In this document: positions 7,447 to 20,155 of the stretch, one piece after another | How the letters are laid out: each line of letters begins with the position of its first letter | Numbering within the stretch: position 1 is the first letter of the stretch | NCBI GenBank assembly: GCA_041659065.1 | Contig: JBAZYY010000001.1 | Span: 163,124-227,123, forward strand | From: Parcubacteria group bacterium | Lineage (GTDB): Bacteria > Patescibacteriota > Minisyncoccia > Moranbacterales > UBA11712 | Direction: 5' to 3' | DNA length: 64,000 bases | Notes under the pieces: model-generated | Databases searched by the model: none | The model's input: only the letters and a program-made list of their open reading frames with translations | Told to the model about the DNA's origin: nothing | Made by a program: the position numbers and the translations under genes

Positions 7447-9918
7447 CTAATCTAATACATCTCGGATGTTAAGCGCAAGCCGGCTGCCTTTTTGGATTTC
7501 ACCGCTGATTATTTTTTTCACTATCCTATCTCCGATCCGGTCTTGAATAAACCGGTCAATTGATCTCGCGCCGAATTTTTTATCATAGCCTTTTTCCACG
7601 ATAAATTTAGGGAATTCCGGATTGAAAATGACGTCGATATTCTCAACATTTTTCAGATTTTCAGCATATTTAATCAGCAGATGCTTCGCAACTTCAATAA
7701 TCTCAGCCTGCGTGAGCGGCGAAAAAAATATTACTCCTTCAAAGCGATTCAGAAATTCCGGCTTGAATATCCCTTTTTCTATGACATAATTTATAACTTC
7801 TTCCCTGACTTTGTCCGGTTCGGTATCTTTTTCAATCGCAGCCTTAATAATATCCGAAGCCGCGTTAGAGGTGGCTATTATTATTTCATTTTTAAAACTG
7901 ATTTTTTTCCCGAAAGCATCGGTCAACCATCCTTCGTCAAGAACCTGTAAAAATAAACTGAGAATATCCGGGTGAGCCTTTTCAACCTCATCGAGGAGAA
8001 GAAGAGAATAGGGATTTTCCTTCACTTTGTTGGTTAGTTGGCCCGAAAATCCCGATTCCGGAGATCCCAAGAGGCGGTTGATCGATTCTTGCCTTTGAAA
8101 TTCACTCATATCTAGCCGGATCATCCTTTTTTCATCGCCAAAATATGCCTCCGCGAGAGCTTTGGCGGATTCGGTTTTTCCCACCCCGGTAGGACCCAGA
8201 AAGAGAAAGCTTCCCAGTGGTTTATTGGCGTTTGCCATGCCGGTCCGCGCCCTCCGGATAGTTTCCGCAATTTGCTTGATCGCGAATTCTTGGCCGATAA
8301 CTCTTTGGTGAAGAACTTTTTCCATGTCAATCAGTCTGTCTTTTTCACCTTCGGTTATCTCGCCAACTGGGATTTTATATTTTTTCGAAACAACTTCATC
8401 CACCGTTTCCGGAAGAATGTACTTTTCATTTGAAATATGGCTCCAATAAAGAAGGACTTCCTCCAAAAGGTCAAGCGCTTTTTCAGGAAAAGGCGAATCG
8501 CTGATATATTTTTCACAGGATCTCACAATTTCTCTGAGAGCTTGATAGGTGAATATTACTCCGTCTTTTTCGAGCTCTTCTAGCTTTCTAAAGAGCACGT
8601 CTAGAGTTTCTTTCGCGCTCATTTCTTCAATCTGTACTTTTTCGAAATATTTAAGCACCTGCTCATGGCTTTCAATGTCCCCGTGGTAATTTTCCGGCGT
8701 AGAAAGTCCTATAATTTGAAAGTTAGGGTAAGCTAGAAATTCAGACAGCACTGCGGATATATTTTCTCCGGCATTTTTGGGATCTTTCTTGAGATAGCGA
8801 TCTATATTTTCAATAACCAGGATAATATTTCCGGCATAAGTCGCTTCAAAAAAAACTTTTCTGAGGATTTGTTCGATTTCCTGTTGGTGCGTGACGCCGG
8901 ATACAACCTCCCCGATATTAAGCACCAGCACTCTCTTTGTGCCGACCGCTGAATATATGCGATGTTCCCTGATCCTTTTGGCCAGATGATGAGCTAGCGA
9001 CATTTTTCCCGTCCCGGCTTCTCCAATCAACAAAATACTGTTCTGTGACGGCCTTGTCAGGATTAATTCCAGCATCTCAATATCCTGATACCTGCCTTTC
9101 TCATCATCATCCTTATAATCAGTAAAGTCTCCTTTGGACAAATCAGAAGAATACTTATCCAAATTTACTGTGTATGCGAATGTCCAGTCTGCCCCGATTG
9201 GGCGTTTGGCAAATAAATTTTCCCTTGACCAAAATCTTTTTTTAAGCAGCCTTTTGTTTTCCCGCTCCGACTCCCACGCTATTATTTTTTGAAATTCTTC
9301 AGCAGTAACTTCGTAACGTTTAAGATTATCGGACGTTGGGCCGGTCTTTTCAATAAAAAGAATGCCGGGATCGTCTTTTTCAACTCCAATCCTGTTCCAG
9401 ACTCTCTTGAACCATTCCTTTTTTAGATACTGCTTGAAGCTATCCGCGCCTTCGTCTTCCTTTGAATGGAAAAAAGCTTTTATGGAGATAATAAAAAGAA
9501 TGGCCGAAACTGCCAAAAAAACTCCGGCCGTAGCCGACAAGTACAGCGTCTTTGAGTAATAGGCCACGGCCAAAACAATACTTACAATCAAGACAAATGG
9601 GAGCAGCAACCATATAACAAGAATAATTACTCCAAAAACTAAAACTAGAAGCACTGCAATCAATCCAAAAATTGCCGTGAAAAGCCTCACAATTGCTCCC
9701 AGAAAACGCGTAATGAGATTTTCAAAAGCCGATTGGAGAAAAAGTATCGGATGTAATCCCCGCTCACCCACTCTCGAAATATCCCTTTTCCATGGCGAAA
9801 AAAGAGTCAGAAGCATTCTTGAAACGCCAAAATACCACCAAAAAAATGCCAGATAGTTCCTCCAGATTTCAAAAAATTTTTTCGTACCCTTCGAATAGTG
9901 CCAAAAAAAGAAATTCAT
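7447..9918 (-). CDS. membrane-anchored ClpA/ClpB-family AAA+ ATPase (N-terminal polytopic TM domain, degenerate D1, canonical D2)
   Basis: 823 aa. The first ~150 aa are strongly hydrophobic with several predicted TM helices. D1 has LLIGEAGTGKMSLAHHLAKRI, an atypical Walker A. D2 has LFLGPTGVGKTESAKALAEAYF and LLLLDEVEKAHPDILSLFLQVLDEG plus a ClpB D2-small-like C-terminus. Confidence 0.7.
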   Translation of the reverse strand: MNFFFWHYSKGTKKFFEIWRNYLAFFWWYFGVSRMLLTLFSPWKRDISRVGERGLHPILFLQSAFENLITRFLGAIVRLFTAIFGLIAVLLVLVFGVIILVIWLLLPFVLIVSIVLAVAYYSKTLYLSATAGVFLAVSAILFIISIKAFFHSKEDEGADSFKQYLKKEWFKRVWNRIGVEKDDPGILFIEKTGPTSDNLKRYEVTAEEFQKIIAWESERENKRLLKKRFWSRENLFAKRPIGADWTFAYTVNLDKYSSDLSKGDFTDYKDDDEKGRYQDIEMLELILTRPSQNSILLIGEAGTGKMSLAHHLAKRIREHRIYSAVGTKRVLVLNIGEVVSGVTHQQEIEQILRKVFFEATYAGNIILVIENIDRYLKKDPKNAGENISAVLSEFLAYPNFQIIGLSTPENYHGDIESHEQVLKYFEKVQIEEMSAKETLDVLFRKLEELEKDGVIFTYQALREIVRSCEKYISDSPFPEKALDLLEEVLLYWSHISNEKYILPETVDEVVSKKYKIPVGEITEGEKDRLIDMEKVLHQRVIGQEFAIKQIAETIRRARTGMANANKPLGSFLFLGPTGVGKTESAKALAEAYFGDEKRMIRLDMSEFQRQESINRLLGSPESGFSGQLTNKVKENPYSLLLLDEVEKAHPDILSLFLQVLDEGWLTDAFGKKISFKNEIIIATSNAASDIIKAAIEKDTEPDKVREEVINYVIEKGIFKPEFLNRFEGVIFFSPLTQAEIIEVAKHLLIKYAENLKNVENIDVIFNPEFPKFIVEKGYDKKFGARSIDRFIQDRIGDRIVKKIISGEIQKGSRLALNIRDVLD

Positions 9919-10000
9919 TTTGTTTTTGCGTTCGTGCTTTTATATTAGCATAATCCAGCTAAACATAAAAACCGCATCTTAGGAAGCTGTTTTATTTTGA
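9900..10000. repeat. left copy of a diverged ~100-bp direct repeat bounding the accessory island (includes the first codons and upstream region of the ClpB-like gene)
   Basis: gccaaaaaaagaaattcattttgtttttgcg...ttagcataa...gctgtttt is repeated, with indels, at 18975-19080. Confidence 0.55.
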
Positions 10001-10169
10001 AAATTTTCTATTTCCCAACATCCGATGCTGAGAAGCGGCTAATTTTTACTTATAAATGGCTTCCAACTTTTTCGTCTGCTCCGAAAGCGCATCAAGTTTA
10101 GCGAATATTGATTTTTGCTTTGATACGGGTTTTCCTAGTATTGAATATTGGGAGGGGTTAATTACCCTG

Positions 10170-10218
10170 ATTCCTAAAGTTCGAAATTAGGATTGGTTTT
10201 CCTAACATTAAATGTTAG
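10170..10218. repeat. hairpin repeat pair (H1-like ttcctaaagttcgaaattagga plus H2 cctaacattaaatgttag)
   Basis: Inverted repeats are visible directly. Both families recur at eight intergenic sites in 10.1-14.1 kb. Confidence 0.6.
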
Positions 10219-10273
10219 AAACGGTTAGAGGGGCCAGAGGTGAATGCCCAAAAATCAAAACTCCTTTTATGGT

Positions 10274-11449
10274 TTATCTTTTCTCTAAAATATCATTAAG
10301 CGGTTTATATATATACCAGTACCCATCATGACGAGGCGGTGCATTTTTTAATACTGACAAGCCCTTCCTCGCATGATCTTTCATTATATCAATATTAGTT
10401 TTATTTATGCGCAACCCTAGTAATTCAAGCGACCGTCCAAGTCTATCGAGCTCATAATTGAAATCAGATTCTGCAGTTCTCGAGTGTAAAAGTTTTTCAA
10501 GATTACCTATTATTTCCTCAAATCTTTTTTCCCAATAAGTAGTTTCTTTTTCATAAAATATATTAATAAACTCATCCCTTAAATTTGTAATGATTTTTTC
10601 TCGCATTGCAAACTGTTCAACACTAAGGGGCACATCAGATTTGACATTACTATACTTGCCAAAGTCAAGGTTCTCAATCCGATTCTTTCCATGAAATATC
10701 GCATATGCGATGTGATTCGCAATAATATGCCTATCAAAATTATTTCCACCGATAATTGAGAACGCAACATTAAACTTTTTATCCCTATCTCCTTTTTTAA
10801 CATTTTCTAATGCATAAAATATTCCTTCGAATGATTTGTTTATTGTTGCTCTAGAACTAATGTACTCTGTAACATATAAAAAACCATTTTCGATTTTATT
10901 TTCTATTAACAAATTACTCACCACACTTTTCACGCCAGAACTGTCAAGGTTGTGATGCTTATGATCATGACCAATATCGAGTGAAACAAGTTCTGCTAAT
11001 TTTTCATTTTTTGTTTCATAGATTTTATTTATCGCCTTATGTATTATTTCCGCAGGCAATCGACCACTGCTATCTTCTGAAAAAACTACATCATAAGCAT
11101 GCGCATTAACTGCATCACGCATTTGTGGTACCATTTTTTCAAATGCACTCATCATTATATCACTGAGAAAATTAATCTCTGCATTTGGTGTTTTCCAATT
11201 TTCATGAAAGATTCTCGCCTCGGTTTCAGCCAATTCAATGGCAGTAACCTTGGGAAGGTTGAAAATTTTAAACAGAATACCCCTTTTCTTGTTTTTTAAT
11301 TTTGCCAATTCTTCCCATTCAGACCAAGATTCTAAAACTTCACGTCTTATAAAACCATTTTCAAGATTAACGAAATTAGCACGCTCGTCGCTTGGCAAAT
11401 CCTCAACTTTTTTATATTCAGCATTAAATGGATTAAATTTTTCTGACAT
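10274..11449 (-). CDS. hypothetical protein (island cassette gene, 391 aa)
   Basis: Long ORF whose ATG lies 28 nt downstream of the X promoter module. No family recognised. Contains a His-rich patch (SLDIGHDHKHHNLD). Confidence 0.55.
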   Translation of the reverse strand: MSEKFNPFNAEYKKVEDLPSDERANFVNLENGFIRREVLESWSEWEELAKLKNKKRGILFKIFNLPKVTAIELAETEARIFHENWKTPNAEINFLSDIMMSAFEKMVPQMRDAVNAHAYDVVFSEDSSGRLPAEIIHKAINKIYETKNEKLAELVSLDIGHDHKHHNLDSSGVKSVVSNLLIENKIENGFLYVTEYISSRATINKSFEGIFYALENVKKGDRDKKFNVAFSIIGGNNFDRHIIANHIAYAIFHGKNRIENLDFGKYSNVKSDVPLSVEQFAMREKIITNLRDEFINIFYEKETTYWEKRFEEIIGNLEKLLHSRTAESDFNYELDRLGRSLELLGLRINKTNIDIMKDHARKGLSVLKNAPPRHDGYWYIYKPLNDILEKR

Positions 11450-11476
11450 ACCCTCGTATTTTCGATTAATTATTTT

Positions 11477-11509
11477 CCCCTGCCGGAATTACGTAATCAG
11501 TTACGTAAC
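11477..11509 (-). promoter_or_regulatory. conserved promoter/operator module X: tandem TTACGTAA palindromes then CCGGC(A/G)GGGG, ~25-28 nt upstream of the cassette start codon
   Basis: The minus strand reads TTACGTAACTGATTACGTAATTCCGGCAGGGGAAAATAATTA. This fits a -35-like TTACGT, a 17-18 nt GC-rich spacer and a -10-like A/T hexamer, leaving a very short leader. Confidence 0.5.
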
Positions 11510-11517
11510 AAATTTTA

Positions 11518-11547
11518 TTCCTAAAGTCGAACTTTAGGAACGGTCAG
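11518..11547. repeat. H1 hairpin repeat ttcctaaagtcgaactttaggaa followed by cggtcag
   Basis: Perfect 10-bp arms (ttcctaaagt / actttaggaa) around cga. Identical copies lie at 13166-13188 and 13349-13371. Confidence 0.65.
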
Positions 11548-11944
11548 TTTTTCTTTCGAGAGACGGCGGATCGAGCGGGCGAAAGCTTGCTGATTGATTT
11601 TTCGCCATTCAGCCTTGATCAACCTTAGATTCCTATAGTACTGCCGGGGATCCCGGGAAAACCCCAAAGCGACGCCTCCCATAAACGCTAGCAATATTTT
11701 CTTTTTCACCGACCCTATCCTGTACATAAATATATTTTAGCATCAATATACGGCCGTGTCTAAAAACTGAATTGGAGCTGGAGAGTATAAATGTGGGTAT
11801 AAATTATAAATATTGAGCAAGGAAATATTCAACAGAATATAGCTTTAAGATACGGCCGTGGGTAAATGCTGGGTTGGGGAAAAAAGATGAAGGAGGTCGA
11901 ATGAAGTGCGAGCGAGAAAGTATTGCTGCTATTTTTCAATCCAT

Positions 11945-11980
11945 CCCCCGCCGGAATTACGTAATTGGTTACGTAATTAT
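11945..11980 (-). promoter_or_regulatory. X module copy (cccccgccggaattacgtaattggttacgtaattat)
   Basis: Same tandem TTACGTAA motif. No ORF starts at the usual 25-28 nt, so this cassette is probably degenerate. Confidence 0.4.
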
Positions 11981-11985
11981 CTTTA

Positions 11986-12010
11986 CCCTAACATTCAATG
12001 TTGAGTTGGG
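11986..12010. repeat. H2 hairpin repeat (ccctaacattcaatgttgagttggg) immediately 3' of the stop codon at 12011
   Basis: The arms aacatt / aatgtt form a palindrome. The same family occurs at 10201-10218 and 13556-13656. Confidence 0.55.
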
Positions 12011-12562
12011 TTATTTTTTTAGCTTCTTTTTTTCTTCAACTTTCGGCCAGCTGGCGCCCCGAAGCTTAATTTGATCCTGTCTTTTCGCAACCCATTGTCT
12101 GTGCGCGTCAACATTATTCTCTTCCAGACTTGGATGCCTCCAAACTTGTTCTGGAGGAGGTATTTGCCCTTTTTTTATCAGCACATTTTCTTGATATTTC
12201 GCTTGTTGCTTTTTTCTTCTGCCTCCAATACTGAAATATCTTTTGGTTTCTTTTCTCCTTTTTGCTCGCTTGGCTATTCCCTGAAGGATTATCTCCTCGG
12301 GATTTTCAATATTGGATTCACTATCAACATATCTAAAAGTATGAGGATTATCTTCCGGCTCAGCAACCTTTCTAATATTTGGTTTCCCGCTGTCTTTTTT
12401 GAATTGCCGTTTTTTTACAGGAACCGTATCGCCTATTTTTTCCCGAACGCCCAGAGGCCCTCCAGATTCGACTCGCAAATCATCTTCAGTTTGGTGCGCC
12501 GATTCTCCGAAATTATTTTCCTTTAATTGATCCACGAGATCCGGTCTTTCGAGTTTTGGCAT
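12011..12562 (-). CDS. hypothetical highly basic protein (183 aa, K/R/E-rich, likely nucleic-acid-binding)
   Basis: The ORF's ATG lies 24 nt downstream of the X module at 12586-12621. Composition is low-complexity basic. Confidence 0.55.
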   Translation of the reverse strand: MPKLERPDLVDQLKENNFGESAHQTEDDLRVESGGPLGVREKIGDTVPVKKRQFKKDSGKPNIRKVAEPEDNPHTFRYVDSESNIENPEEIILQGIAKRAKRRKETKRYFSIGGRRKKQQAKYQENVLIKKGQIPPPEQVWRHPSLEENNVDAHRQWVAKRQDQIKLRGASWPKVEEKKKLKK

Positions 12563-12585
12563 ATATTATTCTTTATTTATTATCT

Positions 12586-12621
12586 CCCCCGCCGGAATTA
12601 CGCAATTAGTTGCGTAATTAT
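12586..12621 (-). promoter_or_regulatory. X module copy (cccccgccggaattacgcaattagttgcgtaattat)
   Basis: Minus strand reads TTGCGT, then 17 nt AATTCCGGCGGGGGAGA, then TAATAA, then 14 nt, then ATG. This is the best sigma70-like arrangement of the four copies. Confidence 0.5.
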
Positions 12622-12624
12622 TCT

Positions 12625-12645
12625 CGCTAAGGTTCAACCTTAGCG
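12625..12645. repeat. hairpin cgctaaggttcaaccttagcg (perfect 10-bp arms) overlapping the stop codon of the upstream cassette gene
   Basis: Revcomp of cgctaaggtt is aaccttagcg. The TAA of ORF 12640..13155 lies inside the 3' arm. Confidence 0.6.
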
Positions 12646-13155
12646 AAGCTCTAGTTTCTCAATTATTTTTTTAAATGCCCCATATCCTCTGTATGACTCA
12701 CCTGATATATATTCTCCACTTTCATCTTTATATTTTTTTATTTCGCCATTTTCTTTAATTTCCCTCAACTCTGAAATAATTTCCCAAAGCAAATTAACAA
12801 AATCTTTACCCAGATTCCGGTTATTAATGGCAAATTCAATAAAAACTTCGTCGCTGATTACCATTTTAAATGTTTCGAAGGATATTCCACTTATTCTTTC
12901 CTTATCAATTAATCTTTTATTATTATTAAACTCTAATAACAATGCCTTCTTGAGAATTTTATATTTATTTCCCCTTCTATAATTCTCTGCTTTTTCATTT
13001 AACTTAAATGCAACAAAAACACCAAGAAAAGTAGCGATTAAAACAAAAATGAATTGAGTAATATCTATTATTGTAATCAAGTTTAACTGATATAACAAAA
13101 TAACCAATAACAACACTAATAATATAAGGTATATAATAATTTTTTTGTTGCTCAT
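12640..13155 (-). CDS. hypothetical membrane protein (two N-terminal TM helices plus a soluble domain, 171 aa)
   Basis: Hydrophobic N-terminus IIIYLILLVLLLVILLY...FIFVLIATFLGVFVAF. No family recognised. Confidence 0.55.
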   Translation of the reverse strand: MSNKKIIIYLILLVLLLVILLYQLNLITIIDITQFIFVLIATFLGVFVAFKLNEKAENYRRGNKYKILKKALLLEFNNNKRLIDKERISGISFETFKMVISDEVFIEFAINNRNLGKDFVNLLWEIISELREIKENGEIKKYKDESGEYISGESYRGYGAFKKIIEKLELR

Positions 13156-13165
13156 AAATTTTTGA

Positions 13166-13188
13166 TTCCTAAAGTCGAACTTTAGGAA
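13166..13188. repeat. H1 hairpin repeat (ttcctaaagtcgaactttaggaa)
   Basis: Exact copy of the 11518-11540 element, 8 nt upstream of the start codon at 13155. Confidence 0.65.
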
Positions 13189-13279
13189 CGGTTAAGAGAA
13201 ATTGCAGTCTTGTCAAAAGCAAAGACTGGATTAGTATCCATTTCCTGTGGCGCTTTTTTGTCTTCGCGATCAAATGCCA
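13169..13279 (-). CDS. possible 36-aa basic peptide MAFDREAKKRHRKWILIQSLLLTRLQFLLTVPKVRL (cassette-positioned small ORF)
   Basis: The ATG lies 28 nt after the X module at 13308-13343, like the other cassette genes. The last 8 codons and the stop are supplied by the H1 hairpin. Confidence 0.3.
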   Translation of the reverse strand, partial: WHLIAKTKKRHRKWILIQSLLLTRLQFLLTVPKVRL

Positions 13280-13307
13280 TAAGATTAGAGATTTTTCTAA
13301 ATTATTA

Positions 13308-13343
13308 TCCCCCGCCGGAAATACGTATTTAAATACGTATTTA
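13308..13343 (-). promoter_or_regulatory. X module variant (cccccgccggaaatacgtatttaaatacgtatttat)
   Basis: Tandem ATACGTAT palindromes replace TTACGTAA. The CCGGCGGGGG and A/T-rich -10 region are conserved. Confidence 0.45.
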
Positions 13344-13348
13344 TTTTT

Positions 13349-13371
13349 ATTCCTAAAGTTCGACTTTAGGA
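13349..13371. repeat. H1 hairpin repeat (ttcctaaagttcgactttaggaa)
   Basis: Third H1 copy, followed by cggttaac. Confidence 0.6.
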
Positions 13372-13555
13372 ACGGTTAACTATTTTTTTTTGGCTTTGGC
13401 TTTCAGTTTTTTGAGGTGCGTGGCCGAATCACGGCAGGTGCAGTTTTTCGCGTGGCCACCGTGCCACTTTATTTTCTCCTCAAGAGTTGCATTTTTGGGC
13501 ATCTTGTTCTTCAAATGCCAGGTTTTGTTGATTTTCATCTTGTTTTATCGCTATT

Positions 13556-13656
13556 CTAACATTGAATGTGGGGTCGGGTTACCCTTGGACGGAAGTTTTG
13601 ACGAAAGCTCGGCTTTCGTCAGGTTTACCCCAACATTGAATGTTGGGTTGGGTTAT
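13556..13656. repeat. composite H2 element (two ctaacattgaatgtgggg-type palindromes flanking the hairpin gacgaaagctcggctttcgtc), a MITE-like insertion
   Basis: ctaacattgaatgtgggg ... gacgaaagc-tcg-gctttcgtc ... ccccaacattgaatgttgggttggg. The element supplies the last 22 codons and the stop of the truncated ATPase ORF. Confidence 0.5.
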
Positions 13657-13944
13657 TTCGATATTTTTATAACCGCTTGGGTCCCATTTATTATTTTTAA
13701 AAGCATAATTTTTACCATCTGTCATGATTTCAATACTCGGATTGTTATTTTGCCCAAGAGTTGATCTTTCTAATATATAAGTAGGATCGTTCCTCTCTAG
13801 AGATCTAAAGATTGCTGATAATGTAGTCTTTCCGCGACCATTCTCGCCAAATAGAACCGACATTTTTTTCAATTTCGTATCTCCTAGAGATTCATATTTT
13901 TCAAATCTTCCGACATGGAAGATTTTTATTACTTTTTCAATCAT
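13579..13944 (-). pseudogene. N-terminal fragment (~100 aa) of an ABC/SMC-type defence-associated ATPase (AAA_15/AAA_21-like), truncated by the H2 repeat element
   Basis: IFHVGRFEKYESL...MSVLFGENGRGKTTLSAIFRSL is a RecF/OLD/PrrC-type Walker A N-terminus; such proteins are >350 aa. Here the frame runs into repeat-derived sequence and stops after 121 aa. Confidence 0.55.
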
Positions 13945-14049
13945 AATAAATTATTTTCCTCCTTAATCCTAAATTTTCCAGATTTGACTAATTTTATACT
14001 ATTATAATTTTTCGGTTCCTTAAATTCGAATTGCCAAGTGGAATATTTT

Positions 14050-14072
14050 ATTCCTTAAGTTTAACTTTAAGA
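14050..14072. repeat. imperfect H1-like hairpin (ttccttaagtttaactttaagaa then cggttaatg)
   Basis: Degenerate copy of H1 at the 3' end of the DpnI-like operon. Confidence 0.4.
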
Positions 14073-14101
14073 ACGGTTAATGATTCTTCGTTAACATCGA
14101 C

Positions 14102-14257
14102 CTATTCCTCTTCGCGATCTTCTGATAAATCCTCAAGAAACCACTCTCTACCGCAAATACAGCTTCCCTGATATGAATACTGATATTGACCACCAATAAG
14201 TTTTATTGCAAGTTTATTTCCACATTTGCACTTTATCAACATCTGCTGATTATCCAT
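14102..14257 (-). CDS. possible 51-aa zinc-ribbon protein (MDNQQMLIKCKCGNKLAIKLIGGQYQYSYQGSCICGREWFLEDLSEDREEE)
   Basis: Two CxCG pairs. The ATG lies 5 nt after the stop of the 153-aa gene. Too short for the ORF track. Confidence 0.35.
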   Translation of the reverse strand: MDNQQMLIKCKCGNKLAIKLIGGQYQYSYQGSCICGREWFLEDLSEDREEE

Positions 14258-14261
14258 AAAT

Positions 14262-14723
14262 TTATTTGTATTTTTTTATCATCTCCAAGCACTCCTCATA
14301 TGCATCTGCCTTGCCGCCAATAAATTCATTTAGACCAAATTCTTCGATATTTTCACTCTCCCAAAATTCCTCTTTCCACTCCTTTCGATAATTTTTTGCT
14401 AATTCTGCGATATGAGCTTCGAGCGATTCTCCAGTAATTTTTTCCAAAAATCCTTTTGCCATCAGTCGTGTCGTAACTTCATCCAAATTTTGCAAATTTT
14501 CCCACAATTCAAACGTCTGATATTTGTCATCGCTTGCAATCATTTTCCATTCATCCGGTTCGACTTCGACAAAGTCATCGTCTTCTTCAGTGTATTCTTG
14601 GCACATGACCAGAAACGGGAAATAAAAATCTTTATGCGAGTCCAGATATTTCAGTATTTTTATTGCGATTTCTCTTGAAATTTTCATAAATTGACCAGAA
14701 ATTATCTTTTTGCTTCTGATCAA
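14262..14723 (-). CDS. acidic 153-aa protein encoded immediately downstream of the DpnI-like gene; possible DpnD-like partner
   Basis: E/D-rich. The gap to the DpnI-like gene is 24 nt. The pneumococcal DpnI cassette (dpnC-dpnD) has a similar small second gene of unknown function; I cannot verify sequence similarity. Confidence 0.45.
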   Translation of the reverse strand: MIRSKKIISGQFMKISREIAIKILKYLDSHKDFYFPFLVMCQEYTEEDDDFVEVEPDEWKMIASDDKYQTFELWENLQNLDEVTTRLMAKGFLEKITGESLEAHIAELAKNYRKEWKEEFWESENIEEFGLNEFIGGKADAYEECLEMIKKYK

Positions 14724-14747
14724 TTTTTGATCGTTTTAAAAACCTTG

Positions 14748-15548
14748 TCAAATAGCCAATTTATACTTTCCCCGCGAGACAAAATTCAGATAGCCTTTAT
14801 CCCTCAAAACTTGCAGTTGCTGACGCAGCTTGTCTTTGATGAAATTGTTGTCCGGATGTTTTTCTTTCAGTTCTTTTTCGAAAGCATACACGTCATCCAG
14901 TACAAATTCCCGTTTACCGATTTTATCGATGCAATTCATCGTATCCAAAATCCATCCTTTTCTCGTTAATTCTTTTTCTTCTCGCAAAAACAAGGTTTTG
15001 CTCCAATTTTCCAAAACATCTTTTTTGGCTTCCAGTTTTCCATCCTTGATATAAAATATCTTTCCGGATTGCGGAACGCTTTTAAGAACAATATTGCAAC
15101 CGACCCATCCGGCCCGCCGTGCATTTTCCGAGAGCGGTTTTCTTTTCTCGATTATCTCGGGAATAAAAAAGTGCTTCGGAATAACCATAAAATTAATAAC
15201 CGAAAAATTTTTCAAATTATAATTTAGGAAAAAGAAATTGGGATTGCGCTCGCTTTGCAACCGCTCAATCATTGTTCGATATGCACCGTCCACTATTTTT
15301 TTGCCCATTGAATCCTTTTTGCTTTTCAGCTCATATTCCTCTTTGCAGTCATCGCAATAGAAATCGGCTACCGGTCGATTGTTCTCAAAGTGATTGATGA
15401 TAGACCCACAAGCCGGACAAAAAATATTCCTCCCGACCCAATCCTCACTTACCGCTTTTATTTTTTGCGACGCATTGCTATATTTCTCCGCAAGTGTTGA
15501 GTCAAATACTATCTGCATAATTATTTTTGCTTCTAAAATCCTAATCAT
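14748..15548 (-). CDS. DpnI-like methyl-directed (GmATC) type IIM restriction endonuclease, Dam-replacing family
   Basis: The ORF has SQKIKAVSEDWVGRNIFCPACGS..NHFENNRPVADFYCDDCKEEYELKSKK, NPNFFFL, RRAGWVGCNI, MNCIDKIGKREF and RQQLQVLRDKGY...RGKYK. These match my recollection of R.DpnI along its whole length. Confidence 0.78.
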   Translation of the reverse strand: MIRILEAKIIMQIVFDSTLAEKYSNASQKIKAVSEDWVGRNIFCPACGSIINHFENNRPVADFYCDDCKEEYELKSKKDSMGKKIVDGAYRTMIERLQSERNPNFFFLNYNLKNFSVINFMVIPKHFFIPEIIEKRKPLSENARRAGWVGCNIVLKSVPQSGKIFYIKDGKLEAKKDVLENWSKTLFLREEKELTRKGWILDTMNCIDKIGKREFVLDDVYAFEKELKEKHPDNNFIKDKLRQQLQVLRDKGYLNFVSRGKYKLAI

Positions 15549-15603
15549 CCCGTCAGCAATATTTTATATAGATTGACGAGTAGGTTGTCTTTAATCCCTA
15601 TCT

Positions 15604-16203
15604 TTATTTCTTAACCCCAATAAACTCCCAAAATCCTCCTGATTTATCATCTCCGTGAACTTTCATAGCTTTTTTAAGTTTGTCTATTTTTACCAATCTC
15701 CATTTAGGCTGGTTTACCGAAGGATCAATCAATCTAACTATTCCTTTTGGCGGATAAATCCTATCCAAAACACAAACATGACCTCCACCACTCTCTTCAT
15801 TTTTTAATATTCCGTGATTGAAACAGACCAGCATGTCCTTATCCTTTTTAACCGCATCAGTAATAAATTTTTCAAAATCCATCTGGTTAAAACGACTGAT
15901 TGGATGATATATCATTTTCAATGGAATTTTCAGCTTGGGAAAAATTGTGTTGGGATGATTTCGCTTAAGATAGATCTGAGTCCCATATCCTGACGGCGGC
16001 TTTTTGCCGGTTCTGGCATTCCAAAATAATTCCTTATATTCTTTGTCCACAATCAGCCCTAAATGATAGCCCAATAATTCCTGTGGCAACAATGGAATTC
16101 CATTTTTATACATAATCATAGAAATGCATGTTGGAACACAGCATGATTTTTGCTGGGCTAATGGGACATATCTTGAATCTTTTGGAACAATTTCTTTTTT
16201 CAT
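15604..16203 (-). CDS. papain-like cysteine peptidase, C39-like domain protein (standalone, 199 aa)
   Basis: An N-terminal Cys motif (CCVPTCISMIMYKNG) fits the C39 CxxxC(L/I)(A/S)M(I/L) pattern. A downstream His motif (GGGHVCVLD) is also present. Confidence 0.45.
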   Translation of the reverse strand: MKKEIVPKDSRYVPLAQQKSCCVPTCISMIMYKNGIPLLPQELLGYHLGLIVDKEYKELFWNARTGKKPPSGYGTQIYLKRNHPNTIFPKLKIPLKMIYHPISRFNQMDFEKFITDAVKKDKDMLVCFNHGILKNEESGGGHVCVLDRIYPPKGIVRLIDPSVNQPKWRLVKIDKLKKAMKVHGDDKSGGFWEFIGVKK

Positions 16204-16404
16204 TTTTTACTCCGATAATCGCGGACGGTCATAGAAGGGATTACTTATTTATCCTACATAATTGCCTTTTATAAAGCAAATATCATCAGTTATCCACAAT
16301 TTAGTTGAAATATTTTTCGAATTATGCAAGTATTATAAGTACCAAGACCTGTATTCCGAACTATCACCGGATGGTGGTGTGGCTGGGACAACCAGTCTAG
16401 GAAC

Positions 16405-16440
16405 GTGGTCGGAGATAGCCCTTCGGGGCTGTTTTTTGTT
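16405..16440 (+). terminator. plus-strand rho-independent terminator-like hairpin (agccc-ttcg-gggct then gttttttg)
   Basis: A GC stem followed by a T-run on the plus strand only. It lies between divergent/convergent minus-strand genes. Confidence 0.4.
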
Positions 16441-17065
16441 ATTTGAAAGGCCATTCATCTTCAATATGCTTCTTTATTATACTTTTGTATACGGCGCGAT
16501 CATTTTTTGTATTGTCATAGCTTCTTCGAATGCTTCCCGCAGTCATATCAGCCATTTGTATGAGGACATTGCTTTTTGAATTTACAAGACGGCAATTTTT
16601 GATGATTTTCGTTTGTTTGGAATTAAGTTGCTTTCTCAAATACGTGATAAAACTTTTTCGAAACACTCTGTCACCGCTTCCGTCAATTTTTATCGATGCA
16701 TTGAAAATCGTGGAATTGTTATATTTGAGAAGTGTCTTGATTATATAGCTGTAAAAAGAATCTTTGCTGTTTTTCAATTCGTCGCTTCTGATTATCTTCT
16801 TATCGACGACGAGAGACCTGATTCTAAACTCGAATTTGTTCACTGTTTGGAGAAATTTTTCTCTCACATCTTTTCGGGATTTGTTGAATTTGAATTCAAC
16901 CTTATCCGAAAACTTCAAGTTTCTTCTCAATTCTTTTATCGCAACTGCGGCTTTTTCCGCTTCCAGATTATCATCAAAAATAACTGCACTTATCACAAAA
17001 AAGTCAGTTGAGCCCCTTTCGAATTTGAAGCCGGCGTCGCCGGAGTCATCAATGAAAACCAGCAT
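16439..17065 (-). CDS. DUF3800 family protein
   Basis: N-terminal MLVFIDDSGD and a later IQMADMTAGSIRRSY motif are characteristic of DUF3800. Confidence 0.65.
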   Translation of the reverse strand: MLVFIDDSGDAGFKFERGSTDFFVISAVIFDDNLEAEKAAVAIKELRRNLKFSDKVEFKFNKSRKDVREKFLQTVNKFEFRIRSLVVDKKIIRSDELKNSKDSFYSYIIKTLLKYNNSTIFNASIKIDGSGDRVFRKSFITYLRKQLNSKQTKIIKNCRLVNSKSNVLIQMADMTAGSIRRSYDNTKNDRAVYKSIIKKHIEDEWPFK

Positions 17066-17611
17066 AATTTATATTTTGAATGATTCGATACCTATTTAAT
17101 GAGGCAAATCTTTTCACTTTTTCCAATCCTTATATGCCTTCTAACCATTTATTGATTCATTCTCATTATTTTCCCACATCCAGGCAATCCCAATAATGAT
17201 CAACGCCAAAACTGTCTCAATGGTCGCGATGGCTATGTAGTGAGGATATGATGATACTGTATATATCATTATAGATCATATTGATAACCAGGACTGTCCA
17301 AAGCCCGGATAAAACCTCTTTCGGATTGCTTTTGATGATGTTTTTCATTTATTCATCCTTAATTTTATTTTTTTCAATCCTTGATATCTTGCGGATGTTT
17401 TGGTCTTTCATTTAGTTGCTACTTACCTTCCGCCCGAGGCGGACACGTGCTACATAACAATTCGCGATTAAGGTGACTGTTTCGCTATTAAATAAAGGTT
17501 TTCTGTGCTTTTATGTTATCACTAAACTCCCAATTTCTCAAATTTTTTGCAAAAAACCCCGCTGTTTCCAGCGAGGCATTCGCGAATGTGTGAATTTACA
17601 ACGAAGCTCGA

Positions 17612-17655
17612 AGGCACCCCGCCAATGGCGGTGGCAGTCTTAGTTAAATTTGTGG
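17612..17655. repeat. copy of the 44-nt tRNA-locus repeat gcaccccgccaatggcggtggcagtcttagttaaatttgtgg
   Basis: Identical to 19226-19262, which lies directly 3' of the intact tRNA-Tyr. Confidence 0.6.
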
Positions 17656-17789
17656 ACAGTTTGGGACAAAGTTGGAACATACCTCGCTTTGCATAGTTAT
17701 TCTACGTAATTTGAGAGAATTTGCCAATTTGCACTATTTTGCTTTATGTAATATTATTTTTTTAGGGGGATTATCAGTAATTTAAATAA

Positions 17790-18503
17790 ATGGAAAAAAA
17801 ATCATTAGAGGGATTTCCAGAACAATTTAAGCAGAATATTGAGGATGTCGATCAGCAACGACACGAATACGAAGAGGAAATGACAGCGACTCGCTTTGAC
17901 GCAGAGAAAGATGCTGCTGTTTTAGCAGAATTAGCCAATGAATTGGCAAAAAGGGAAGGGGGAGATGTTGACAAAAAAATAGAAGCCATGGATATATTAA
18001 AAACAGAAGCCGAGAAGATGGACGGATGGAGGGAGCAAGATTACTCTAGAAAAGTAGATGATCTAATAAGCCAAATCGGCTTAAAAAAACAGCAGCCTTT
18101 TCAAGTGGAGAAAGGCGGAAAAGAGGTTTATGGAGATGTTTATTATCAGTGGCCGAATAATAGTAGCTCTTTATCAAGTGCTATTGAAAAAGTTCGGAAG
18201 GATATTCCGAAACTATTTGAAAATGCCTGGGTTATTGAACGTTTCGTAGAGCGTACAAAAAAATTTGAAATACTAAGATATATTCCCGAAAAGCTTAGGC
18301 ATGACAAAACTTTTTTGCATGGGATGATAAAAAAACAAGGTATTGAAGCTCTCAAATATTTACCTTACGGAGTGAAGAACGTAAATTTTCTGCTAGAAGT
18401 CGTAAACAAAAATCCAAACTTAAAACTTGCCGATTTGAAAGAAAATATTCCGGGTGAAATCTATTCAGTATTGGAAAAGAATTTGAAAACCAAAAGCGAC
18501 TAA
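17790..18503 (+). CDS. hypothetical protein (237 aa, acidic N-terminus)
   Basis: The ORF is preceded by a TTGCAC-17-TATTAT promoter-like sequence at ~17728-17756. No family recognised. Confidence 0.5.
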   Translation: MEKKSLEGFPEQFKQNIEDVDQQRHEYEEEMTATRFDAEKDAAVLAELANELAKREGGDVDKKIEAMDILKTEAEKMDGWREQDYSRKVDDLISQIGLKKQQPFQVEKGGKEVYGDVYYQWPNNSSSLSSAIEKVRKDIPKLFENAWVIERFVERTKKFEILRYIPEKLRHDKTFLHGMIKKQGIEALKYLPYGVKNVNFLLEVVNKNPNLKLADLKENIPGEIYSVLEKNLKTKSD

Positions 18504-18521
18504 CGAGGATATTATTTTTTT

Positions 18522-18893
18522 ATGAGTTTAGAAACTTCTGCCGAGGAAGAACAAGGCAACGATTCAATAAAGCAATGGGCAACGGAAGAATATTTTGATA
18601 CTATTTTGCGAGTTGCTTGCTGTGCCCTCCCCCAACTTAATGGAAGTGAAAAAGAATTATTGCTCAATGATGTTGAAAGTGGGCAAGGAGATTTAGCGGA
18701 AACATTCGCCGAATTGCTGAAAAAGCAAAGGGAATGCGATAAAATGTTTCACATGTGGGTTTCCGTAAAGCCCGTCAAAGAATCACCTGTATTGCAAGAG
18801 CATTACAGAAAAAAAGATGAGATAACCTTTCATTTAATTACACTTTTAGCTTCAAGGATTTCCGAGTTAAGACAGCCTCGCTTGGTAAAATAA
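18522..18893 (+). CDS. hypothetical protein (123 aa)
   Basis: The ORF starts 18 nt after the previous gene, consistent with a two-gene plus-strand operon inside the island. Confidence 0.45.
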   Translation: MSLETSAEEEQGNDSIKQWATEEYFDTILRVACCALPQLNGSEKELLLNDVESGQGDLAETFAELLKKQRECDKMFHMWVSVKPVKESPVLQEHYRKKDEITFHLITLLASRISELRQPRLVK

Positions 18894-18974
18894 TAAATGT
18901 ATTCTTCCCAACGATTTGACTTTTTCCAAATCCAGCGATACACTAACCTGATTCAATCAATCAGGTTTTTGTAT

Positions 18975-19080
18975 GCCAAAAAAAAGAAATTCATTTTGTT
19001 TTTATTTGCGGTGTTGCTGGTATTTTAGCATAAAAAAGACAAACTTAAAAACAGCCTTTTAATGAAAGACTGCTTTTACG
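18975..19080. repeat. right copy of the island-bounding direct repeat (contains a pseudo-start ATGAATTTCTTTTTTTTGGC duplicating the first codons of the ClpB-like gene)
   Basis: gccaaaaaaaagaaattcattttgtttttatttgcgg...ttagcataaaaaagacaaacttaaaaacagcc... aligns with 9900-10000. Confidence 0.55.
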
Positions 19081-19154
19081 ATTACTTAAGTTGTTTGTGG
19101 TACCTTTTGGTTAAAATCCGAACTTTTTTTGACGAAAATCCGGATTTTGAAAAT

Positions 19155-19204
19155 TGGCGGGTAGGGAGGGATTCGAACCCCCGTAGCCCGAAGGCGCCAG
19201 ATTT
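19155..19204 (-). pseudogene. tRNA-Tyr 3' fragment (anticodon-loop position ~36 to the 3' end, with encoded CCA)
   Basis: Minus strand reads AAATCTGGCGCCTTCGGGCTACGGGGGTTCGAATCCCTCCCTACCCGCCA. It is identical to the 3' part of the intact tRNA-Tyr apart from the discriminator base. Confidence 0.7.
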
Positions 19205-19258
19205 ATGTCGCCTCTTGCGGCACCCCGCCAATGGCGGTGGCAGTCTTAGTTAAATTTG

Positions 19259-19341
19259 TGGGTAGGGAGGGATTCGAACCCCCGTAGCCCGAAGGCGCCA
19301 GATTTACAGTCTGGTACAATTGGCCGCTCTGTCACCTACCC
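19259..19341 (-). tRNA. tRNA-Tyr (anticodon GTA), long variable arm, no encoded CCA
   Basis: The tRNA reads GGGTAGGTGACAGAGCGGCCAATTGTACCAGACTGTAAATCTGGCGCCTTCGGGCTACGGGGGTTCGAATCCCTCCCTACCCA. Acceptor arms are GGGTAGG / CCTACCC. Anticodon stem CCAGA / TCTGG carries loop CTGTAAA. Confidence 0.85.
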
Positions 19342-19342
19342 G

Positions 19343-19594
19343 TTACTTTATTCTTTTAATCAATTTTTTAAACGCGTCACCACCTTTGTATGATTTTATC
19401 CGTAATTCTCTTTTGTAAGCATCATTCTTAGTATTATATTCTTCCGTATAAATAATTTTCCAGGGACGAGCACTCTTAGTCGATCTTACTAATCCTCGGT
19501 TATGTCTTTCCAGTCTATTATTTAAGTCCTGCGTACGGCCAATATAATATTTATTAGATTTTTCTATAGATTCTAAAATATATACTCTATACAT
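19343..19594 (-). CDS. GIY-YIG nuclease family protein (UPF0213/YhbQ-like, 83 aa), copy 1
   Basis: YRVYILES...YYIGRTQDLNNRLERHN...PWKIIYTEEY...KRELRIKS matches the small GIY-YIG family signature. The stop codon lies 1 nt from the tRNA-Tyr 5' end. Confidence 0.75.
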   Translation of the reverse strand: MYRVYILESIEKSNKYYIGRTQDLNNRLERHNRGLVRSTKSARPWKIIYTEEYNTKNDAYKRELRIKSYKGGDAFKKLIKRIK

Positions 19595-19693
19595 AACATA
19601 ATAGCATGAACATTCTGATTTATGCCGCCCCTAGCGGCACCCCGCCAACGGCGGTGGCAGTCTGGTACAATTGGCCGCTCTGTCACCTACCCG

Positions 19694-19945
19694 TTACTTT
19701 ATTCTTTTAATCAATTTTTTAAACGCGTCACCACCTTTGTATGATTTTATCCGTAATTCTCTTTTGTAAGCATCATTCTTAGTATTATATTCTTCCGTAT
19801 AAATAATTTTCCAGGGACGAGCACTCTTAGTCGATCTTACTAATCCTCGGTTATGTCTTTCCAGTCTATTATTTAAGTCCTGCGTACGGCCAATATAATA
19901 TTTATTAGATTTTTCTATAGATTCTAAAATATATACTCTATACAT
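19694..19945 (-). CDS. GIY-YIG nuclease family protein, copy 2 (identical)
   Basis: The ORF has 100% identical translation to copy 1. Confidence 0.7.
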   Translation of the reverse strand: MYRVYILESIEKSNKYYIGRTQDLNNRLERHNRGLVRSTKSARPWKIIYTEEYNTKNDAYKRELRIKSYKGGDAFKKLIKRIK

Positions 19946-20083
19946 AACATAATAGCATGAACATTCTGATTTATGCCGCCCCTAGCGGCACCCCGCCAAC
20001 GGCGGTGGCAGTCTGGTACAATTGGCCGCTCTGTCACCTACCCGTTTTAAAATAGTACTATTCGCTCCGCGTCATCAACCGGG

Positions 20084-20155
20084 AGCCGGGAAGAGGAGTC
20101 GAACCCCCAACCTACTGTTTACAAAACAGTTGCTCTGCCATTGAGCTATCCCGGC
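20084..20155 (-). tRNA. tRNA-Thr (anticodon TGT)
   Basis: The tRNA reads GCCGGGATAGCTCAATGGCAGAGCAACTGTTTTGTAAACAGTAGGTTGGGGGTTCGACTCCTCTTCCCGGCT. Acceptor arms are GCCGGGA / TCCCGGC. Anticodon stem ACTGT / ACAGT carries loop TTTGTAA. Confidence 0.8.

Follow-up and report, generated by a model that had tools for sequence, protein, structure and literature searches.

Horizontally acquired genes in bacteria are found in integrase-free hotspots between core genes, whose content is turned over by recombination in the flanks, and in tRNA-proximal arrays of degraded integrative elements such as the tycheposon islands of Prochlorococcus. Other integrative islands target the 5′ end of a gene and restore it, as those at dusA do; integrase-mediated islands have a tyrosine or serine recombinase gene at one end and flanking direct repeats (attL/attR) with an identical core. 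Free-standing GIY-YIG homing endonuclease genes represent a different lifestyle, as they spread by intron-less homing in T4-type phages. Integrons and the cassette clusters lacking an integron integrase (CALINs) are recognized by hallmarks of their own, namely an IntI integrase with attI and the Pc promoter, attC sites, each of which is one imperfect hairpin whose R'' (RYYYAAC) and R' (GTTRRRY) ends pair, and small, mostly promoterless ORFs in one orientation with a recombination site on either side. For the Candidate Phyla Radiation (CPR), nearly all members of which are uncultured, mobile-element biology is poorly known. The published accounts closest to the present case, used here for their general outline, concern the repertoire of defense islands (PMC10121019), dusA-specific islands and prophages (PMC8409611), and the tycheposon islands of Prochlorococcus (bioRxiv 10.1101/2020.12.28.424599). 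Here, a 64,000-nt stretch of a Parcubacteria group bacterium genome (GenBank assembly GCA_041659065.1, contig JBAZYY010000001.1, positions 163,124 to 227,123; hereafter the window) was analyzed, in which the junction between a tRNA-Tyr gene and a ClpB-like gene is occupied by a lineage-specific, composite accessory island with defense-type cargo (10004-18971). All positions are those of the window, and loci fetched for comparison carry our own designations (e.g., L082).

The island is bounded by two diverged direct repeats on the minus strand, a left copy (L, 9897-10003) and a right copy (R, 18972-19085), that share an exact core of 25 nt (9903-9927 and 18979-19003). Aligned over their full length, 83 of 104 bases are the same (80%, or 73% if the 10 gap columns are counted), and R as a whole is 70-80% identical to L. 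A search of the 64 kb with a 23-nt core pattern, allowing up to three mismatches, returned just these two sites and none in 100 shuffles. Read along the minus strand, both copies have the same layout, with a terminator-like hairpin followed by a promoter region, a leader, the ATG, and the first seven codons of the ClpB-like gene. L serves the ClpB-like AAA+ gene itself and reads on into its 823-aa open reading frame (ORF; 7447-9918, minus strand; Pfam AAA_2, 7.4e-48; ClpB_D2-small, 5.8e-17), the 5′ end and promoter of which are thereby present twice. R carries terminator, promoter, and leader as well, and one additional T in a T-run shifts the frame and leaves a 13-codon stub (MNFFFLAYKNLID*), downstream of which lies the terminator hairpin (18945-18967) of an opposite-strand ORF (18522-18893). 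The initial annotation of this DNA had described a ~9-kb island between diverged ~100-bp repeats, the left copy being the real start and upstream region of the ClpB-like gene and the right copy a pseudo-start; the alignment and the frameshift in R agree with both statements.

Comparison with related genomes was used to interpret how L and R differ. Orthologues of the ClpB-like protein share 52-81% identity and have conserved neighbors, with a Candidatus Moraniibacteriota metagenome-assembled genome providing the best match in the genome collection (57% identity). Against the intergenic region of L082, L is 84-91% and R 76-83% identical, and L resembles L082 more closely than the ClpB-like coding sequence does. 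The more distant relative L147 gave the reverse order (R, 69%; L, 59%), and in the terminator and upstream promoter region R has character states in common with this outgroup that are absent from both L and L082. Hence, R does not represent a degenerate version of L. Divergence between the copies is also unevenly distributed, as 29 of 30 columns around the ATG are the same compared to 54 of 84 elsewhere (Fisher p = 2.8e-4), corresponding to zero divergence in the exact core and 28-36% outside of it; under uniform drift, the probability of an intact core would be about 1e-4 or less. The core sequence is likewise unchanged in L082, which has no island, meaning that the core by itself marks no crossover and that divergence between L and R tracks functional constraint, as it does for orthologues of separate genomes. 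Judged from their sequences, L and R thus represent predicted homeologous versions of one functional promoter/5′ unit that stem from different lineages, and not a drifted duplication, a simple insertion footprint, or a target duplication. Such a homeologous pattern implies that one of the copies came with foreign DNA from a related lineage. Of the earlier proposal that the locus is the footprint of an inserted or recombined element, the accessory island is retained, whereas the repeats are better described as homeologous 5′ units than as a simple insertion footprint.

The island body comprises 8.97 kb of lineage-specific DNA, as judged by composition, empty sites, and the absence of its cargo from relatives. 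Its GC content is 0.359 compared to 0.417 in the remaining window, and among all 9-kb stretches of the window it is both the GC minimum and the maximum of trinucleotide deviation. An empty site, which the initial annotation had predicted for related genomes, was present in four relatives, where the distance from tRNA-Tyr to the ClpB-like ATG is 92 bp (L082; ClpB-like protein 81% identical), 166 bp (L147; GIY-YIG protein 83% identical), 81 bp (L001; ClpB-like, 57%), and 241 bp (L079; ClpB-like, 56%). The surrounding gene order is kept in relatives (S2 - EF-Ts - PSP1 - TPR - tRNA-Thr - tRNA-Tyr / ClpB-like - PheS/PheT). None of 12 cargo ORFs had a tblastn match in any fetched locus of a relative, and gene content at this locus is not the same throughout the group. 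Identical content in all relatives was one of two outcomes that the initial annotation had named as speaking against its reading, the other being a lack of significant similarity between the repeat regions. Other DNA occupies the same junction elsewhere, with DUF47 and PiT genes in L078 and different small ORFs in L150-L152; the junction is therefore a variable hotspot.

Both island junctions were found again in independently assembled contigs of this population, which derive from three samples (SRR18595301, ERZ27249449, and JGI 3300014208). L076 and L077 span the left junction with island DNA upstream, while L141 and L142 span the right junction with the DUF3800 gene, two plus-strand ORFs, and R, L141 extending as far as tRNA-Tyr and GIY-YIG. 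This recurrence shows that the structure is not an assembly artefact. The NCBI records of the island proteins are likewise assigned to "Parcubacteria group bacterium" (locus tags WC858_00810 and WC858_00865). None of the island ORFs had a match to a family of recombinases, transposases, or integrases in the four profile libraries (Pfam, NCBIfam, PHROGs, and PADLOC), in accordance with the integrase-free island described initially, and no recombinase was present among 20 further ORFs of at least 180 aa within 580-48344, which are housekeeping or cell-envelope genes. The island is without a recombinase of its own and is not self-mobile.

The right-hand flank of the island is formed by an unusual tRNA locus on the minus strand. 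An intact tRNA-Tyr(GUA) gene (19258-19341; ARAGORN; Rfam tRNA, 55.9 bits) and its upstream neighbor in the conserved synteny, tRNA-Thr(UGU) (20082-20155; ARAGORN and Rfam), are separated by two tandem 351-bp units (19343-20043) that are 100% identical over 300 nt and contain GIY-YIG ORFs at 19343-19594 and 19694-19945. Each unit consists of 35 nt from the 5′ end of tRNA-Tyr, up to and including G34, a GC double hairpin of ~35 nt, the sequence TAAATC, and an 83-aa ORF consisting of a GIY-YIG domain only. On the other side of the intact gene lies a displaced tRNA-Tyr 3′ half (19155-19240), where a ~35-nt GC hairpin is inserted at the anticodon position G34^U35. The order along the minus strand is thus tRNA-Thr, two units, intact tRNA-Tyr, and AGACTG followed by hairpin and complete 3′ half. 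Over its 47 nt the displaced half is the same as the intact gene, after which it continues with G + CCA, an ending found neither in the intact tRNA-Tyr nor in relatives. The GIY-YIG domain (PF01541, 1.5e-15) covers residues 2-68 of the ORF product, which has no separate DNA-binding domain and a weak match to PHROG 5123 ("homing endonuclease with GIY-YIG motif", E 0.0046); homologues are 79-84 aa long.

A second direct repeat links this locus to the interior of the island. The segments 17613-17666 and 19219-19272 are exact over 44 nt (49 of 54 positions identical in total) and interleave with the outer repeat. The internal segment (minus strand) is a copy of the tRNA-Tyr trailer CACAAATTTAACTAAGACTG and the first GC hairpin, and it is followed by a terminator-like hairpin. 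The 44-nt repeat brackets the right-hand 1.6 kb of the island, in which gene orientation and GC skew are both opposite to the remainder. Because of this interleaved exact repeat and the switch in GC skew, the 1.6 kb is a separate module, and the island is composite, with a right-hand part that was probably gained or reshuffled on an occasion of its own. The reading of the initial annotation, one element next to tRNA genes, needs amending in this respect, and the tandem GIY-YIG/tRNA units and the duplicated 3′ half had been overlooked. On the minus strand at 17545-17666, the internal 44-nt copy is succeeded by a palindrome (GCATTCGCGAATGC), a strong terminator-like hairpin (CCTCGCTGGAAACAGCGGGG), and a U-run, and this segment could be a small transcribed unit. 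A decayed tRNA at the flanks of the internal copy (17.6 kb) was considered and dismissed, as 266 and 393 of 2000 shuffles scored as high or higher.

Which of the two 5′ units is the resident one was addressed with several features that point in different directions, and we slightly favor R as the original resident copy with L being imported together with the island. R lies 73 nt past a displaced 3′ tRNA half that is identical over 47 nt to the allele of this genome, and displaced remnants in relatives adjoin native flank. The greater similarity of L to L082 relative to the coding sequence fits the same polarity, as does the position of the core at the gene-proximal end, since this is the sole stretch long enough for a homologous crossover. 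For L as resident, on the other hand, R sits within the 1.6-kb module that has its own 44-nt repeat and opposite gene orientation and GC skew, and the displaced 3′ half has a G + CCA end that the intact gene does not. As local alignments scored 18-22 (shuffled means, 17.7-17.9) and many other sites in the window score higher, remains of a degraded tRNA-Tyr were rejected both for the left island end and for the sequence upstream of R. Overall, tests of polarity based on tRNA remnants at the island ends, on trailer similarity, and on a ClpB-like recombination tract gave no significant signal.

For the origin of the island, we lean towards a recombination event, either a single crossover or a homology-facilitated one, that brought DNA of a related lineage into the tRNA-Tyr/ClpB-like junction. 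L and R would have evolved under selection in two different, related genomes. A single-crossover (Campbell-type) or homology-facilitated event at the ~25-29-nt lineage-invariant stretch around the ATG would then have inserted the foreign block and, in the same step, left one live and one dead promoter/5′ unit, with the 44-nt repeat mediating one or more additional rearrangements before or afterwards. The neighboring tRNA-Tyr locus with its GIY-YIG cassettes probably makes the junction a hotspot, by means of breaks and homeologous repair templates. Several observations weigh against this account. No donor genome carrying the island was found, so that transfer is deduced from repeat divergence and composition alone, and exact look-ups of the flanking proteins in the three samples revealed no island-free variant of the population. 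A length of 25-29 nt is at the lower limit for a RecA-type crossover. It is L (84-91%) and not R (76-83%) that is nearest to L082, and the flanking genes are L082-like too, a pattern just as compatible with the reverse polarity. Sequence upstream of L or R is not significantly similar to the tRNA-Tyr trailers of relatives, and the identity of the ClpB-like gene to L082 reveals no recombination tract; a gradient of identity at the N-terminus, which had been a candidate for such a tract in the 5′ region, occurs in all orthologue pairs and hence reflects constraint. Lastly, the GIY-YIG protein, which would have to make the breaks, is just 83 aa long and has no DNA-binding domain.

The left part of the island (10128-14088, minus strand) is a region of ORFan mini-cassettes, in which small ORFs on the same strand (68, 183, 171, 52, and 51 aa, and others) alternate with structured hairpin units. 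Four of these are composite double-hairpin units that could be aligned (11462-11560, 11936-12020, 12576-12652, and 13294-13392; minus strand), and solitary hairpins are present at 10128-10227, 13166-13188, 13549-13655, and 14045-14088 (minus strand). A composite unit begins with (T)AACC, followed by a 10-bp helix A with a 3-nt loop, an A-rich linker, a 10-bp helix B with a 4-nt loop, and the invariant sequence TTCCGGCGGGGGA; three of the four end ~25 nt ahead of the next ATG. Across these units, of which there are four copies only, 96% of cells are paired compared to 28-41% in slid controls, and compensatory double changes affect 5 of 20 pairs. The window contains 30 perfect hairpins with a stem of at least 8 bp, 11 of them in 11.4-13.95 kb. 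An ATPase gene is cut exactly at the start of a hairpin run (13655; hairpins at 13623-13655 and 13549-13581). Apart from L076, a contig of the same genome, the double-hairpin motif was found neither elsewhere in the window nor in 160 loci. In viral contigs, a search for the motif gave two matches of the TTCCGGCRGGGGA type, which are due to chance and lie in GC-rich coding DNA without hairpins. The covarying double-hairpin units may represent a new integrase-independent cassette-junction element. Between a triple hairpin and the left repeat, a short frame ending in ...KLDALSEQTKKLEAIYK* (10040-10100, minus strand) could be the remaining C-terminal end of a gene that was deleted.

Four other explanations were weighed against the recombination of related-lineage DNA. 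One does without any transfer of the repeat: replication slippage or unequal crossover would have doubled the junction locally, after which the unused copy drifted and genes collected over time between the two. It can draw on the frequency of local duplications at this locus (the two 100%-identical 351-bp units and the duplicated tRNA 3′ half); it deserves very little credence, as drift cannot spare 25-29 nt while the other ~85 nt change by 28-36%, R has the character states of an outgroup lineage, and the DNA between the copies is compositionally foreign. The main rival for the outer repeat is an integrase-type island at the 5′ end of the ClpB-like gene, similar to those at dusA. Here, a tyrosine recombinase would have joined an attP carrying a replacement promoter/5′ end to an attB at the start codon, with the 25-nt core as crossover site and the integrase gene being later lost or acting in trans. 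The exact core in direct repeats with similarity decaying on the promoter side only, one copy that keeps the gene intact next to another that is a stub, the clean empty sites of relatives, and the decay of the island (truncated ATPase, ORFans) would all fit such an element. Nevertheless, no recombinase is encoded in the island or by the 20 other long ORFs (580-48344), the core is a conserved start region that is the same in the island-free L082 and need not be an att site, the ~85 nt of homeologous similarity past the core exceed what att arms usually share, and a second instance of the element was not found anywhere searched. Taken together, we consider this origin unlikely.

A more plausible competitor, though still one we doubt, is serial growth with the opposite polarity, which is a variant of recombination from a related lineage and does not contradict it. 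L would be native, an older insertion (10.0-17.6 kb) would have entered just downstream of tRNA-Tyr, and a 1.6-kb module, in which a tRNA-Tyr 3′ half and an intergenic region (R), both foreign, are combined with the ClpB-like stub and two ORFans, would have followed later via the 44-nt hairpin/trailer repeat. Such a history is reminiscent of the arrays of degraded elements found beside tRNA genes. This would explain why L and both flanks are L082-like and R is outgroup-like, why the exact 44-nt repeat (17613-17666 / 19219-19272) brackets exactly this module, why genes in the module run the other way and its GC skew is positive, and why the displaced 3′ half ends with G + CCA, unlike the intact gene and those of relatives. 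However, the displaced half is this genome's own lineage-specific tRNA-Tyr allele over 47 nt, which argues for a local origin, no tRNA remnant could be detected at the island's distal (left) end, and a recombinase is lacking here as well. For the left 4 kb alone (10.1-14.1 kb), construction by cassette capture as an integrase-less, integron-like array (CALIN) with the hairpin units as recombination sites would be suggested by the small co-oriented ORFs, each bounded by units of fixed geometry, variable sequence, and compensatory changes, by one gene being truncated precisely at a unit, and by the restriction of the units to this region. The units themselves do not have the identity of attC sites, as they form two independent, perfect 10-bp hairpins followed by the invariant TTCCGGCGGGGGA instead of one long imperfect hairpin, and the pairing of RYYYAAC...GTTRRRY ends was not found. 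Since neither IntI nor any other tyrosine recombinase occurs in the ORFs scanned and no further locus with such units was found, a CALIN appears very improbable.

The GIY-YIG/tRNA units next to the island belong to a type of cassette that recurs at other loci, where, on the tRNA strand, a tRNA 5′ fragment is followed by a conserved GC double hairpin (CCACCGCC-N3-GGCGGGGTG..CCGC-N4-GCGGCA), a 79-84-aa GIY-YIG-only ORF, and an intact tRNA of the matching type. tRNA-Tyr is cut in the anticodon loop in L082 (239-671), L147 (9912-10333), L148 (9905-10456), L155 (3554-3979), L156, L157, and L162 (1348-1834), and in the D loop in L150 (9941-10334), L151, and L152. Further cassettes were located in tRNA-Gln (L002, 3638-4045; D loop), tRNA-Ser(UGA) (L161, 1396-1852; D loop and anticodon loop), and tRNA-Ser(GCU) (L164, 1397-1855; D loop). 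The cassette is missing from L001, L078, and L079, where just 10-12 nt separate tRNA-Thr from tRNA-Tyr. In L155, the upstream 5′ remnant (GGGCAGG...) pairs with a downstream 3′ remnant (...CCTGCCCA) and neither pairs with the intact tRNA between them (GGGTGGA.../...TCCACCCA). This pairing means that the tRNA between the remnants came with the cassette, which is nested in an older tRNA gene. No Rfam family covers the GIY-YIG/tRNA cassette, a search of viral contigs with the tRNA GC-hairpin pattern gave no match, and a literature search for GIY-YIG/tRNA cassettes in CPR found no description.

Two other kinds of structured DNA were observed at the tRNA loci of relatives. An insert of ~100-170 nt is located just after tRNA-Tyr in L078 (8092-8200), L079 (9760-9935), and L150 (10335-10456), and contains the blocks GGGAAAAC..GTTTTCCC and a second short hairpin (e.g., GAAACCGCAAGGTTTC), with duplicated tRNA-Tyr 3′ ends flanking it. 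In L147 (9113-9300) and L148 (9743-9900), partial tRNA-Thr-like copies lie between tRNA-Thr and the GIY-YIG cassette and hold short GC hairpin inserts (e.g., TCCCGCC-TCG-GCGGGA in the anticodon region). We also entertained a broader scenario, in which the island is a by-product of an undescribed mobile system of tRNA-invading GIY-YIG cassettes and integrase-independent hairpin cassette junctions. GIY-YIG cassettes with a conserved GC double hairpin would insert into the D loop or the anticodon loop of tRNA genes, in CPR members as well as in other bacteria, and supply an intact tRNA, or part of one, so that the host is left with a functional gene. Successive rounds of cleavage and homeologous repair at tRNA-Tyr would then drag in neighboring DNA of relatives and give rise to the duplicated junction and the island. 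As an explanation of the island as a whole, this scenario is speculative and rather improbable.

The cargo that had been named initially (a DpnI-like module, DUF3800, a truncated ATPase, and hairpin repeats) was substantiated. The ORF at 14748-15548 (minus strand) is full length (PF06044, profile positions 1-182 of 183; PF17726, the C-terminal winged-helix domain, 2-69 of 70) and its product is a predicted methyl-directed restriction enzyme of the DpnI family (type IIM; Pfam DpnI, 2.6e-81; DpnI_C, 3.2e-32; PADLOC mREase_II, 7.5e-118). The adjoining 199-aa ORF (15604-16203, minus strand) had no match in Pfam, NCBIfam, PHROG, or PADLOC, and a sequence search of the PDB was empty. A DUF3800 protein is encoded at 16439-17065 (minus strand; Pfam, 3.6e-16; PHROG 9243, 4.4e-14) and is a candidate defense gene of the PDC-M04A type (PADLOC, 8.4e-15). 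A DUF3800-IX RNA motif (Rfam RF02968; 16346-16414, plus strand; 50.1 bits compared to a gathering score of 36.8, E 1.6e-08) was observed 25 nt past the stop of this gene and is modeled on the opposite strand. The truncated ATPase (13579-13944, minus strand) is an N-terminal fragment of an AAA_13/PDC-S06-type defense ATPase (Pfam AAA_13, 6.1e-07; PADLOC PDC-S06, 5.8e-14) with ~96 of ~750 residues left, residues 1-92 corresponding to positions 1-97 of the 784 in the PDC-S06 profile.

Among the remaining island genes, a 391-aa ORF (10274-11449, minus strand) encodes no recognizable recombinase, belongs to no Pfam, NCBIfam, PHROG, or PADLOC family, and returned nothing in a PDB sequence search. 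It has a single word-indexed homologue (32% identity) and 113 HMMER matches, mainly to residues 1-80, and in a library of 1.8 billion proteins this N-terminal module of ~80 residues heads about 100 otherwise unlike proteins of 47 to 808 aa. Its AlphaFold model (predicted local distance difference test score, pLDDT, of 51.6) was too poor for a fold search. In the locus of the homologue (L158), no long inverted repeats were detected by a coarse scan, which also misses the 10-bp hairpins of this window. The right-hand module encodes two ORFans of 237 and 123 aa (17790-18893, plus strand) that have positive GC skew; the terminator hairpin is at 18945-18967. A database search with the 237-aa protein returned solely the protein itself, and the two-ORF arrangement is also present in L141-L143.

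In general terms, the island is a fairly ordinary example of an already known kind, the integrase-free defense/accessory island in a tRNA-adjacent variable spot. What it documents, at base-pair resolution, is probable horizontal acquisition between related lineages of CPR/Patescibacteria, and the homeologous promoter/5′ duplication would serve as a clean natural marker that incoming DNA derived from a relative's copy of the same locus. The GIY-YIG/tRNA cassettes are more novel than the island, and together with the covarying hairpin units they are the parts worth following. In the papers searched, no description was found of tRNA-invading GIY-YIG cassettes with a replacement tRNA (tRNA-Tyr, tRNA-Gln, and two tRNA-Ser, in several lineages) or of hairpin units bounding ORFan cassettes. 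If they are true homing elements, the cassettes would constitute a new route for a selfish nuclease into essential tRNA genes and a source of recombination hotspots in reduced genomes.

When compared to described systems, the locus shares with core-gene-flanked hotspots and defense islands the same core flanks, content that varies among relatives, defense-type cargo, and the lack of a mobility gene, and differs in that the flanking gene has its promoter and 5′ end duplicated as a homeologous pair, which flank-mediated replacement does not usually produce, and that the host is a CPR bacterium. Similar to dusA-type islands, the insertion lies right where a protein gene begins, promoter and first codons are provided by the element-side copy, and the direct repeats are imperfect; here, however, there is no integrase, similarity continues for ~85 nt past a core that is a conserved start region, and no second copy is known. 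Tycheposon-type arrays likewise abut a tRNA gene, have partial tRNA copies, and show a modular, decayed structure, whereas in the present island partial tRNAs occur at the tRNA-proximal end only and are tied to GIY-YIG and not to tyrosine recombinases, and the outer repeat is not tRNA-derived. The neighboring cassettes, and these only, resemble GIY-YIG homing in T4-type phages, in that the ORF is located in or next to a conserved essential gene, is present or absent at one and the same site among relatives, and is linked to an intact target. In contrast to the phage systems, they consist of a 79-84-aa catalytic domain alone, combined in one cassette with a tRNA or tRNA part and a GC double hairpin, and their targets are the cellular tRNA genes of CPR bacteria.

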